This document shows positions 12,001 to 15,000 of a stretch of DNA of 17,503 nt, one piece after another. Positions within the stretch are counted from its first letter, which is position 1, and every line of letters starts with the position of its first letter. The position numbers are program-made. This stretch comes from a virus (Duplodnaviria; Heunggongvirae; Uroviricota; Caudoviricetes), in the IMG/VR virus record IMGVR_UViG_2740892231_000009; one strand, 5' to 3'.

Positions 12001-15000
12001 GCGTATAGAGTTTGTTTTGCCTTATCCACCGACGGTGAATACTTACTGGCGACGTCGTGGCAGCACATATTTTATATCTGAGGAGGGAAAGCGCTATCGC
12101 CGGGCAGTGGCGCTTATTGTTCGCCAGCAGCGGCTGAAATTAAGCCTGTCCGGAAGGCTGGCGATAAAGGTGATTGCAGAGCCACCGGATAAGCGCCGCC
12201 GTGACCTGGATAATATCCTGAAAGCGCCGCTGGATGCGCTGACGCATGCAGGGTTGTTAATGGACGATGAGCAGTTTGATGAAATCAATATTGTACGTGG
12301 CCAGCCAGTATCTGGTGGACGGCTGGAGATAAGAATTACAGAGGTGGGTGTGCATGAATAACCAGTATTTACAGTTTGTTCGTGAGCAACTCATGATTGC
12401 CACTGCGGATCTCAGTGTGTCGATAAAAGGCCAACTGGAAGCCTGGCAGGAAAATGCACTGTTCGATACAGGGCGTTACAGACGCAAAAAAATTCGTTAC
12501 CGCGATGAGGTAACCGGAAAAATGATCACGCGGGATAACCCACCGATCCCGGGTAAACAATCACTGGCGAAAGGGACGTCAATTGCTCTGGTCAGTCCGG
12601 TTGAGTTTTCGACATCATCATGGCGACGTGCAGTTCTGGAACTGGAAGCGCATCAGAAGGCGTGGTTGTTGTGGTGTTACGGCGGAAACATTTGCTGGGA
12701 GTATCAGATTGCGATAACGCAGTGGGCGTGGAATGAATTTAATACTCAATCCGGTACCAGAAAAATAGCTGGGAAAACGCTGGAACGTCTGAAGAAGTTG
12801 ATCTGGCTGGCGGCGCAAGCGGTAAAAGCTGAGCTTTTTGGTGGGGAAGGTTATGAATACCGGGATCTGGCATCACTGGTGGGAGTGACATCAAAAAACT
12901 GGTCTGAGACATTTACTGAACGCTGGGTTGCAATGAAGCACATTTTTCTACAGCTTGATAGCCAAGCTTTATTGCTTTTAACGAAAACACGTTCAAAACA
13001 AAAGACCACATTTTCACAGCAAAATATTGCAAAACTGGATTAAAAAGCATATATTTCATGTAAATCTGATATTTTGCCGATTTTGTACGCGATGGCAAAG
13101 TAAGCAAACCCCGCCGCCGAGCGGGTTTTTTTGTTGGCTTAACAGGTTATAATGTACAGTGCGAAACTGCCTGTTCAGCAGAATCATTTTGTTTGTAGTG
13201 GAGTTCACAAGTCGTCATTATCAGGCAAAGAGATTTATGGTGTTAAAGTATCAGCCGTCTGTTCGTTCTGTTTTAATGTGTGATTTTCGGGGAATGGTTG
13301 TTCCGGAAATAGTCAAGGTCAGGCCAGTGGTAGTCGTGTCCAGAAACAGACACAACAATCAATTGGTAACAGTGGTACCAATAAGCACTACTGAACCGAT
13401 TCCTCGCAGAGATTGCCATCATGAGTTATCAGAAAACCCCATCCCTGGTAATGAGCATATTACTTGTTGGGTAAAATGTGACATGTTGATGACGGTTTCA
13501 TTGAGCCGACTGGATCGCATAAAAACTAGAACCTGGGAGGGGCGAAATTATATTGTTCCTATGATTGCGGAAGATGAGTTTGAGAATATTAAACGGGCGG
13601 TATTGCACGGGATAGGGATGGCTTATCTGTATCGATAATCGAAAACGATTATCGAATTCGATATGAATTTATATTGACACACATAGTGTGTTGACTGATA
13701 CTGTCGCTGTACCCTGATGGGACTTGTGAGACTTCCGAACTGGAAGCCAGGAGTAGCAATAAGGTGATGACAAGCCTGCTGCCCCTGTGTAAAAGGCACC
13801 TTAATGGTGCCTTTGTCGTTTTTATCAAAAGATCCCCGCCACTGGCGGGTTTTTTTATGCCCGAAAAACGACACAGGGCGTTAAACGCGCTGGTGGTTGC
13901 GAATACTGGTCTTTTCAGCTTGCTGGCTTTTTTGACAAGAGTTATTGGTGTGTCACGTTAACCGGAAAAAGGAAAAAGACATGCTGAAACAGCAGGATAT
14001 GACAGAAACCGCCAGAGTGGTGTTTAATGAATTAAGTGCCACCGAACCGGCGACAGTCGGGGAGATTGCGCAGAATACTTATCTTTCACGTGAACGCTGC
14101 CAGTTAATACTGACCCAGCTTGTTATGGCGGGTCTGGCAGACTATCAGTTCGGTTGTTANNNNNNNNNNAAATACTACTCCCCAAAATCCCCCGGCCTGA
14201 CTGATGCATCGGCCTCAACGTCAAAAGATGCGCTGAGTATCACTGATGTGATGGCCGCGCAGGGCATGACACAGAATCGGGCTGAGATGGGGTTTTCTGC
14301 GTTCCTTGGGAGAATGGGCATTAGTATGAATGACAGAGAGCGGGCAACAGAATTGCTGACAGAATATGCACTCAGTCGGTGTGATCGCGTGGCGGCGTTA
14401 AGAAAACTCCCGGCAGAAATAAAACCGGCAGTGATGCGTATTATGGCTTCGTATGCGTTTGAAGATTATGCCCGTAGCGCGGCGAGCAAAAAACAGTGCC
14501 CCTGCTGTCACGGAAAAAAATTTATTGAAAGCGAGGTTTTTACAAACAAGATCCAGTATCCGGATGGTAAGCCGCCAGTGTGGGCAAAGTGCACAAAAGG
14601 CGTGTATCCGTCTTACTGGGAGGAATGGAAAAAAGTCAGGGAGGTGGTAAAAGTTGCCTGTCCGGAGTGTGGCGGAAAGGGGGAGGTTTCCACCGCCTGT
14701 AAAGATTGTCGTGGGCGCGGTGTTGCCATTCATCGTGAAGAGTCGGAAAAACAGGGTGTGCCGGTTTTCAGAAACTGCCAGCGTTGTGGTGGGCGTGGCT
14801 ATGAAAGATTACCTTCAACGGAGGCATTTAATGCCATATGTAATGTAACCGATGCCATATCTCTTGATACATGGAAAAAAACAGTTAAACGTTTTTACGA
14901 TACGCTGGTGGTGCAGTTTGATATTGAAGAAGCATGGGCAGAACAACAACTGAAAAAGGTGACCAGATAGCTTTGTTGATTTTTCCCGAATCTGTGGTAA

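Follow-up and report, generated by a model that had tools for sequence, protein, structure and literature searches.

The window (i.e. the whole 17,503-nt stretch of IMG/VR virus record IMGVR_UViG_2740892231_000009 that was analysed) carries a gene for a MazF/PemK-fold protein with a structured small RNA (sRNA) encoded directly downstream on the same strand. The gene and the RNA are best read as a protein-toxin/RNA-antitoxin module, inserted after the late promoter PR' and terminator tR' of a phage-82-type Q gene; a probability of about 0.55 is assigned to this reading. The pair is probably a new toxin/RNA-antitoxin family, and the sRNA would bind the MazF-fold RNase and either neutralise or regulate it.

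The MazF-fold gene was located at 13237-13638 (plus strand, 133 aa) by ORF calling, Pfam and PHROG matches and alignment of homologues, with a ribosome-binding site (AAGAG) at 13226-13230. The RefSeq version of the gene is truncated, with a start at 13294; the corrected start brings back Cys15, which is invariant, together with the first beta-strand, both of which are missing from the RefSeq gene. An earlier note on this DNA had given the span as 13106-13638, of which the end was correct whilst the start belongs to an upstream terminator. The MazF/PemK fold proposed in that note was borne out by Pfam family PemK_toxin (PF02452; E 6.1e-14; 52.6 bits, cut-off 23.1), which was present in 111/111 homologues, by a match to phrog_15698 across the full length of the protein (E 1.3e-47) and by an AF2 model with a pLDDT of 94.8. 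The protein has the SH3-like barrel fold of MazF, Kid and CcdB. A PDB search with the single 133-aa sequence gave no match at E <= 1, a profile search of the PDB gave marginal MazF matches only (E ~0.03) and none of the PADLOC defence models was matched. The suggestion that catalytic residues may be lacking was contradicted: E24, R29 and S50 are present, do not vary among 79 homologues and correspond, in an alignment that is distant, to E24, R29 and T52 of E. coli MazF. Further invariant residues (i.e. C15, P23, K27, P54, W78 and R91) are specific to the family. The gene is under purifying selection, with pN of 0.13-0.21 versus pS of 0.67-0.78 and dN/dS of 0.07-0.15 for pairs with a computable dS. 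Judged by its sequence, the 133-aa protein is an intact MazF-fold endoribonuclease of the large YifN-like 'solitary' PemK subfamily, whose genes are never accompanied by an adjacent protein antitoxin gene; for this subfamily, 813 representatives of 50%-identity clusters were found at E <= 1e-10.

No protein antitoxin gene accompanies this toxin-fold gene. An adjacent co-directional gene for a MazE, PemI, AbrB or RHH-type antitoxin, the hallmark of a type II system, was not found at the locus, and there was no antitoxin-sized ORF in 13044-13236 or 13639-13760. A comparison of 87 homologous loci revealed no neighbouring ORF that was conserved across genera, so that the absence of an adjacent protein antitoxin, as proposed previously, was upheld by both approaches. 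Several small ORFs were considered and rejected as antitoxin candidates. A 41-aa ORF (13027-13152) overlaps the inferred PR' leader and tR', and a 43-aa ORF (13152-13283) lies mostly outside of the sequence conserved with Enterobacter, Klebsiella and Xenorhabdus loci, BLAST homology to which begins at 13214 or later. Two minus-strand ORFs that overlap the RNA (13623-13874 and 13649-13828) are interrupted in relatives by 1-nt indels, and a 16-codon ORF within the RNA (ATG at 13717) has a frame that differs between E. coli and Enterobacter. The RefSeq name of the gene is 'type II toxin-antitoxin system PemK/MazF family toxin', without there being any type II antitoxin.

The partner sRNA (~115 nt, 13709-13823, plus strand) was defined by alignments, covariance model searches, covariation and its terminator. 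A structured core of four helices (13709-13792) is followed by a terminator hairpin (13792-13814) and a U-rich tail, CCUUUGUCGUUUUU. The RNA contains a GAUGACAA loop and a CUUG segment, with the ACA-containing loop being invariant, and across loci the RNA is closed by a terminator whose tail, CCCUUUGUC, is conserved. A second intrinsic terminator was detected 3' of the sRNA at 13835-13856 (plus strand). A promoter scan identified an sRNA promoter at 13674-13702 (plus strand; TTGACA, 17 nt, GATACT), whose -10 element ends 6 nt 5' of the RNA start. This geometry was examined in 84 distinct contexts: 62 scored >=8/12, as compared to 12/344 controls, and in 74 of the 84 there was a sigma-70-like promoter ending 6 nt 5' of the RNA. 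Where the gap between gene and RNA is short, the sRNA promoter lies inside the toxin ORF. The predicted pairing is supported by covariation, as 98.7% of cells were paired, compensatory changes were present in 17/19 pairs and 240 double-change cells were observed versus 69 +/- 6.5 in shuffles; slid controls were 31-54% paired, and the alignment was fitted to the model structure so the pairing counts are inflated. The 1-nt indels in relatives show that the sRNA region is not coding.

No Rfam family matched the partner sRNA. Type III-like repeats were not detected beyond a 13-nt x 2.5 repeat at 13631-13663 that is not conserved in other genera. Crude RNAduplex predictions between the RNA and the toxin translation-initiation region at 10 loci gave z-scores of -3.1 to +1.9 and no consistent site. 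HnrS is a 66-nt prophage sRNA that is multicopy in EHEC (PMC13502914); identity with the ~115-nt RNA, which is rare in E. coli, is unlikely.

Linkage of the RNA to the gene was examined across genomes using a covariance model built from 12 sequences and applied to 591 kb. Matches were obtained at 90 places, and in 87/95 gene-bearing loci the RNA was directly downstream of the gene and on the same strand. The other three matches comprised two RNA-only prophages and one weak minus-strand match just 3' of the gene in locus L012. No match within the 591 kb lay elsewhere than at the gene position or, for the two RNA-only prophages, in the equivalent slot after Q. Hosts include Enterobacterales, Pseudomonas, Caulobacteraceae, Burkholderiales, Neisseria, Pasteurellaceae, Geobacter, Cytophagales and Anaerolineales. 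The gene had been described as unpartnered; at the RNA level this is contradicted, because the RNA accompanies the gene family across phyla. Seven gene-bearing loci with intact catalytic residues gave no RNA match at E <= 0.1. These include the subclade L084-L086 and L095-L097, plus L077, which is a short contig ending ~100 nt past the gene. Together with the weak match in L012, these loci indicate either that linkage is not absolute or that the RNA has diverged beyond the reach of the model.

Whether the RNA acts as an antitoxin was considered separately from its linkage to the gene. The RNA could be a genuine partner in another capacity, with the MazF-fold protein processing, turning over or chaperoning the sRNA, or with both forming an RNP with a different job such as regulation of host or phage transcripts. 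This alternative is considered unlikely, whilst being the strongest of those weighed, and draws on the same linkage and covariation evidence. In Pseudomonas, many members of the family reside stably in the chromosome with conserved synteny, and such vertical stability is unusual for addiction modules; these members would also fit a housekeeping RNase that is not toxic, together with its RNA. The RNA was also found alone in phages (6/25 IMG/VR matches), suggesting that it is of some value without the gene. Processing by the protein is not needed, however, for an RNA whose two ends are set by a promoter and a terminator of its own, and retention of the full MazF catalytic set also argues against a non-antitoxin role. 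Furthermore, in the one clear loss event it was the protein that disappeared, and the RNA was retained. A BLAST comparison with the related prophage L015 showed that a 494-bp segment (13188-13681, plus strand), containing the toxin gene and the -35 element of the sRNA promoter, is present in the window and absent from L015, which has kept the RNA. Loss of a toxin alone is harmless, and this event therefore fits a toxin/antidote pair.

The setting of the putative toxin-antitoxin module was defined by the upstream Q antiterminator gene (12354-13043, plus strand), a member of the phage-82 family (PF06323). This assignment was based on Pfam (Phage_antiter_Q, E 6.3e-90), 79.5% identity to phage 82 Q and the annotation of L001, an identical locus; the longest ORF begins at 12348 and the PGAP start is 12354. 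A late promoter PR' with a sigma-70 pause site is predicted at 13027-13086 (plus strand), overlapping the end of Q, from a promoter scan, conservation and published features of 82pR' rather than from phage 82's own sequence. Those features are an extended -10-like pause element, GCC at +15 to +17 and U at +25 (PMC5001585). The window contains a -35 of TTGCAA (13027-13032), a -10 of TATATT (13050-13055) and a probable start at ~13062 (AAA), followed by a pause element TGaTATTTT (13067-13075), GCC at 13076-13078 (+15 to +17) and a pause position (+25) at T13086. These features are conserved 3' of Q in 434, 689R5 and PPompW. An intrinsic terminator at 13110-13133 (plus strand; hairpin 13110-13125 followed by a T-run) was detected by a terminator scan and a fold of 13062-13134, and it is kept after Q in all of the Q82-type phages aligned, 434, 689R5 and PPompW among them. 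This terminator is interpreted as tR' and would end a PR' leader RNA of ~70 nt resembling isrJ, for which the Rfam match at 13059-13130 was sub-threshold (21.3 bits). With PR' at the end of Q and tR' at 13110-13133, the MazF-fold gene would lie downstream of PR'-tR'.

A TATAAT hexamer is present between tR' and the gene (13148-13153, plus strand). The hexamer has no usable -35, was not called by the promoter scan and also occurs in the gene-less L015, and it is at most a weak promoter; no consensus promoter was found between tR' and the MazF-fold gene. As read from the sequence, the gene has the placement of late-operon cargo (i.e. the same strand, 3' of PR'/tR' and without a strong promoter of its own). 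A position 5' of the lysis genes was seen in L001 and related prophages, outside of the present window. An accessory-gene slot is again seen between Q and the lysis genes of related prophages in other genera, the gene and RNA pair was found after all three unrelated Q families (Q82, Qlambda and Q21), and a terminator separates Q from the gene in each of these contexts. Window context downstream of an N-run at 14161-14170 is unreliable. A 341-aa 'Q-like ORF' (13945-14970) spans this N-run and fuses sequence of two prophage loci, and its reading as a second antiterminator was therefore dropped.

This arrangement suggests how a toxin-antitoxin module could operate in an E. coli prophage, with the pair inserted just past PR' and tR' of a phage-82-type Q. 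In the lysogen the toxin gene, without a good promoter of its own, would receive only read-through of the terminator, whilst the sRNA would be made constitutively. Full transcription of the toxin gene would occur only once Q acts.

The same position could instead point to a solitary late-phase RNase that shuts off host or early phage mRNAs, the neighbouring sRNA being functionally unrelated. Such an RNase would need no antitoxin, because the gene would be silent behind PR'-tR' until Q acts in a cell that is already doomed. A comparable case is RegB of phage T4, a toxin-fold RNase that the phage employs in the absence of an antitoxin. The late-phase explanation agrees with the location of the gene 3' of PR' and tR', with its placement in related prophages between the late activator gene and the lysis genes, with use of the same slot after Q genes of the Q82, Qlambda and Q21 types and with the absence of a consensus promoter between tR' and the gene. 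It nevertheless accounts neither for the presence of the RNA after the gene in chromosomal loci outside of phages, across phyla, nor for the tolerance of chromosomal homologues, and it is regarded as quite improbable.

A type II-style toxin neutralised in trans by a protein, either a host MazE/ChpS-like antitoxin or an unrelated regulator, was considered more improbable still. Solo toxins with trans-acting antitoxins are documented (PMC2701414, PMC4803016). However, the 29-kb prophage region of L001 has no MazE/PemI-like gene in its annotation, each of the many phyla in which the family occurs would need a trans antitoxin, and the RNA linkage would have no explanation. The reading of the earlier note, in which the gene forms a self-contained moron located between Q and PR' with its own terminator, driven by TATAAT at 13148 and perhaps encoding an inactive fold re-used as a regulator, has very little left to recommend it, since the terminator and the TATAAT do exist where it placed them but are not private signals of the gene (both are in the gene-less L015, the terminator is common to Q82-type phages and the TATAAT is without a -35), the PR' features at 13027-13086 lie upstream of the gene, the catalytic residues are invariant and the element at 13674-13702, rejected as PR', is the sRNA promoter and was also found in non-phage loci.

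The toxin/RNA-antitoxin reading has consequences beyond this prophage. A conserved RNA partner provides a concrete and testable answer for a whole MazF subfamily lacking a type II antitoxin. If the RNA is an antidote, the range of RNA-neutralised toxins would grow past the three type III families known so far, a new RNA family would await annotation and the late-control region of Shiga-toxin-producing E. coli prophages would hold a candidate anti-phage or phage-competition module. More tentatively, and with somewhat less than even odds, the pair may represent an unrecognised toxin-antitoxin class in which a MazF-fold RNase is checked by one independently transcribed sRNA of ~115 nt. Such a class would comprise at least 800 protein clusters in many phyla and temperate phages and could explain a large share of 'solo' MazF/PemK proteins, with RNA-only phages using the RNA as an anti-toxin countermeasure. 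No description of the gene and RNA pair was found in the literature on YifN, orphan or solitary MazF proteins and new type III families.

The pair was compared with several known systems. Myxococcus xanthus MazF-mx is a MazF homologue that likewise has no antitoxin gene beside it (PMC4803016), but is neutralised in trans by the protein MrpC, with no RNA partner reported. Like stx cargo, the MazF-fold gene lies 3' of a constitutive late promoter and terminator (as predicted here) and, in related prophages, 5' of the lysis genes; the stx cargo is an exotoxin, whereas here it is an RNase and an sRNA. Short PR'-tR' RNAs include StxS, lambda 6S and Salmonella IsrJ, and StxS shows that PR' leaders can be regulatory sRNAs (PMC7547250). 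The PR' leader in the window resembles isrJ, and the partner sRNA is distinct from that leader, whereas in L017 the partner sRNA is inside a lambda-type PR' leader. The type II toxins MazF, Kid (PemK) and ChpBK share PF02452 with the family, which is only 13-23% identical to solved MazFs, has an extra segment at residues ~89-102 and here has an RNA in place of a MazE/PemI gene as partner. E. coli YifN shares the motifs PE[MI][IV]KxR and VVP[IL]STT and is also encoded by a solitary gene, and many family members are named 'YifN (PemK superfamily)' by JGI. Identity of YifN to the 133-aa protein is only 29% over the first 68 residues; YifN is uncharacterised, the K-12 copy is a frameshifted pseudogene and a weak covariance model match (E 0.16) was obtained just downstream of yifN. 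In logic the pair would be like the type III systems (i.e. ToxIN, CptIN and TenpIN/AbiQ), in which an endoribonuclease toxin is paired with an adjacent non-coding RNA; there is no sequence relation, and inhibition of the toxin by the RNA is putative in the present case. Type III RNAs consist of tandem 34-36-nt repeats located upstream of the toxin gene and co-transcribed with it, an internal terminator being present, whereas the present locus has no repeats and would represent a new architecture, with a single-copy RNA of ~115 nt positioned downstream of the toxin gene and equipped with its own promoter and terminator.

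The MazF-like gene occupies positions 13237-13638 (+ strand) and encodes a protein of 133 aa; the start at 13106 given in an earlier note belongs to an upstream terminator. In RefSeq this product is annotated as 'type II toxin-antitoxin system PemK/MazF family toxin' with a start equivalent to 13294. This start is too short, because the phrog_15698 match spans residues 1-126, the family consensus opens MxLxFQP, and the invariant Cys15 and first beta-strand lie upstream of it in the alignment and the AlphaFold2 model. Positions 12900-14160 are 100% identical to prophage DNA of at least nine complete E. 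coli genomes, which are human isolates throughout and include several named STEC. Carriage of the gene in E. coli is rare (24 of 5426 complete genomes).

The proposed MazF/PemK fold was confirmed by a Pfam PemK_toxin match (E 6.1e-14), an AlphaFold2 model (pLDDT 94.8 from a 79-sequence alignment) and a Foldseek search of the PDB, whose 50 best matches were all MazF-family toxins, including MoxT and YdcE. Residues C15, P23, E24, K27, R29, S50, P54, W78 and R91 were invariant in the family alignment. As E24, R29 and S50 align with E24, R29 and T52 of E. coli MazF in a comparison with four reference toxin sequences, the possibility, raised earlier, of missing catalytic residues was unsupported. 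Selection was examined using prophage orthologues of E. coli, Enterobacter, Klebsiella and Xenorhabdus, which exhibited a pS of 0.67-0.78 (i.e. synonymous sites near saturation), a pN of 0.13-0.21 and, where computable, a dN/dS of 0.07-0.15. Every PemK/MazF feature open to sequence testing was found in the protein, which is a member of this superfamily. Its family comprises 813 representatives of 50%-identity clusters (E <= 1e-10), many members being labelled 'YifN (PemK superfamily)' by JGI; the yifN pseudogene of K-12 is distantly related (29% identity across 68 residues).

No plausible antitoxin ORF was found in the flanks of the gene, no MazE/PemI-like gene in the annotated prophage and no neighbouring ORF with cross-genus conservation among 87 homologous loci. 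Close homologues (65-79% identity) in prophages of Enterobacter, Klebsiella, Xenorhabdus and Arsenophonus are solitary and follow the late activator; more distant homologues on Pseudomonas, Geobacter, Alcanivorax and Atlantibacter chromosomes are also solitary. The claim of no visible antitoxin was thus borne out for a protein antitoxin. An RNA partner is present: downstream of the gene lie a promoter (TTGACA-17-GATACT, 13674-13702, + strand), a structured region and a terminator detected by terminator scan (13792-13814, + strand). Enterobacter and Klebsiella retain this segment 3' of the gene, and Xenorhabdus retains part of it (13708-13786). Reading the region as coding sequence was excluded by one-nucleotide indels.

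Across 83 distinct rows of an alignment fitted to the model, 98.7% of cells were paired and 17 of 19 pairs had changes on both sides. Cells with both-side changes numbered 240 as compared to 69 +/- 6.5 in shuffles, and sliding the partners as a control lowered pairing to 31-54%. A sigma-70-like promoter stands at a fixed distance: in 74 of 84 contexts its -10 ends 6 nt 5' of the RNA start; scores of >=8/12 were obtained for 62/84 contexts versus 12/344 control positions. Where the intergenic gap is short, this promoter lies within the end of the toxin ORF. The terminator has a conserved tail, CCCUUUGUCnUUU, and the single-stranded parts GGGnCUUGuGAGaCU and loop GAUGACAA are nearly invariant. 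Neither in the window nor in a set of nine diverse loci did the RNA match an entry of Rfam 15. A 14-nt inverted copy (13864-13877, 93% complementary) of the conserved tail CCTTTGTCGTTTTT (13810-13823) occurs 40 nt downstream. Just 5' of the sRNA promoter, a 13-nt unit of palindromic character (ATCGATAATCGAA, 2.5 copies, 13631-13663) crosses the stop codon; it may be an operator, and is not kept in Enterobacter or Klebsiella.

An nhmmer profile of the RNA core matched just 3' of the gene in many distant taxa. A covariance model built from 12 sequences gave 90 matches in 97 loci (591 kb in total), and in 87 of 95 gene-bearing loci the match lay on the strand of the gene and directly 3' of it, so that 'unpartnered', as the gene had been described, does not hold. 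Hosts include Pseudomonas, Caulobacteraceae, Burkholderiales, Neisseria, Pasteurellaceae, Geobacter, Cytophagales and Anaerolineales. Locus L012 has one weak minus-strand match immediately downstream of the gene, and two E. coli prophages, L015 and L017, have the RNA without the gene. Throughout the 591 kb, matches were confined to the gene's position or, for L015 and L017, to the corresponding place after Q. Seven gene-bearing loci lacked an RNA match despite intact catalytic residues; in one (L077) the contig ends ~100 nt past the gene. In L084-L086 and L095-L097, where catalytic residues are intact and no RNA was matched, the partner may be a diverged form of the RNA or something else; a motif, KC[DN]MIYTVSFERLDK, is common to the proteins of L086 and L095-L097, and in L095-L097 a ~370-aa ORF begins ~56 nt 3' of the gene.

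An exact-pattern scan of IMG/VR yielded 25 loci, with the gene upstream in 18 and the RNA alone in six. Copies without the gene (L015, 2528-2610; L017, 2498-2581; IMG/VR loci L109, L117, L125, L128, L129 and L131) could be orphan antidotes or counter-defence RNAs of prophages and viral contigs; the leader of a lambda-type PR' (TAAATT then AACGATGGG) contains the L017 copy. A different, repressor-linked context is found in Vibrio phage 10N.239.311.A09_PE001 (L100, 3371-4634), where a PemK-like gene (37% identity) follows cro-like HTH and S24-peptidase-like genes on the same strand; a weak RNA-model match (E 0.005) lies 134 nt 3' of the gene in this Vibrio prophage-like element. A weak covariance-model match (15.8 bits, E 0.16; L101, 1901-1956, - strand) 3' of the yifN pseudogene (b3777), in the expected place and strand, hints at a core-genome locus with a related RNA.

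The Q gene belongs to the phage 82 family (PF06323, E 6e-90; 79.5% identity to 82 Q), one of three Q families (PMC9388147). In 82pR' the QBE lies between -35 and -10 (PMC4914094), the pause element is nearer TATAAT than that of lambda and has an extended -10, GCC occupies +15 to +17 and pausing occurs at +25 on a U (PMC5001585). The window agrees with every published feature considered: on the + strand, a putative PR' detected by promoter scan has -35 TTGCAA (13027-13032), a 17-nt spacer and -10 TATATT (13050-13055), and is followed by a +1 near 13062, pause element TGaTATTTT (13067-13075), GCC (13076-13078) and, as pause base, the T of position 13086. Phage 434, 689R5 and PPompW retain this block and the terminator at 13110-13133 (+ strand) 3' of Q. 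From this conservation and the published 82pR' features, 13110-13133 is read as tR', which would place the MazF-like gene downstream of both PR' and tR'. The gene had been placed between Q and PR'; the PR' features (13027-13086) lie upstream of it, and what was taken for PR' (13674-13702) is the sRNA promoter. Nor are the terminator and TATAAT the gene's own signals, as had been proposed, because the related prophage L015 retains PR', terminator and TATAAT as in the window and lacks 13188-13681; the TATAAT at 13148 has no usable -35. In Enterobacter, with a Qlambda-type Q, the order is Q, promoter, terminator, MazF-like gene; a terminator also separates Q from the gene in Xenorhabdus (Q21-type) and Klebsiella. 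The putative ~70-nt leader from PR' to tR' (13062-13133) matched Salmonella isrJ in Rfam below threshold (21.3 bits), over 14 identical 5' bases and the terminator; a Q82-type prophage remnant may have IsrJ as its PR' leader.

Beyond a run of 10 N in the window (14161-14170), the sequence maps to a different prophage locus of the same genomes (in strain FHI_NMBU_10, near 0.357 Mb, with the toxin region near 1.19 Mb). Scaffolding has therefore probably created the chimeric 341-aa ORF at 13945-14970, in which a TrmB-like HTH is joined to a Qlambda-type antiterminator. Downstream of the run, 3333 bases (14171-17503) align to ~2428 reference bases in five pieces, with repeated DNA-methylase fragments (15544-16032, 16060-16692 and 16604-17503), which suggests duplication or an assembly artefact. 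A DDE transposase of an IS element (9106-10224, - strand) occupies a place held by other genes in the identical-Q prophage L001, and the DUF968 gene (10708-11986, + strand), one 1050-bp gene in L001, appears as two overlapping ORFs (10708-11376 and 11306-11986). DicF RNA is present at 644-695 (- strand; 75.8 bits) and a hok/sok type I locus at 8588-8913 (+ strand; sok 117 bits; Hok/Gef ORF 8701-8913), so the prophage encodes one or more further toxins under RNA control.

The MazF-fold protein family is intact and is accompanied across phyla by an RNA gene with separate promoter and terminator signals. We infer that this RNA neutralises or regulates the MazF-fold RNase, because it is the sole conserved partner, because in type III systems RNA inhibits toxins of this fold class, because its promoter is strong and constitutive-looking whilst the phage toxin gene lies behind a terminator, and because one clear deletion (L015) took the toxin gene and left the RNA. 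Against a role as antidote or regulator stand the seven gene-bearing loci without an RNA match, L012 with its weak minus-strand match only, and the RNA-only copies in phages. No consistent antisense complementarity was observed between the RNA and the toxin start region, which appears to favour protein binding over a type I mechanism. In a lysogen, the RNA would be made continuously and the toxin solely via tR' read-through; on induction, Q would drive the toxin gene hard. As to purpose, the pair may serve in abortive infection, addiction or late host shut-off.

The fold and RefSeq annotation are already known; new are the RNA partner and the corrected regulatory map, no description of the MazF-like gene and RNA pair being found in Rfam or the literature searched. 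A type II system is defined by a protein antitoxin encoded next to the toxin; this feature was looked for and is absent, so the locus is not of that type. It differs from type III systems in lacking their upstream tandem repeat array, co-transcribed with the toxin gene, and resembles them in combining an RNase with an RNA.
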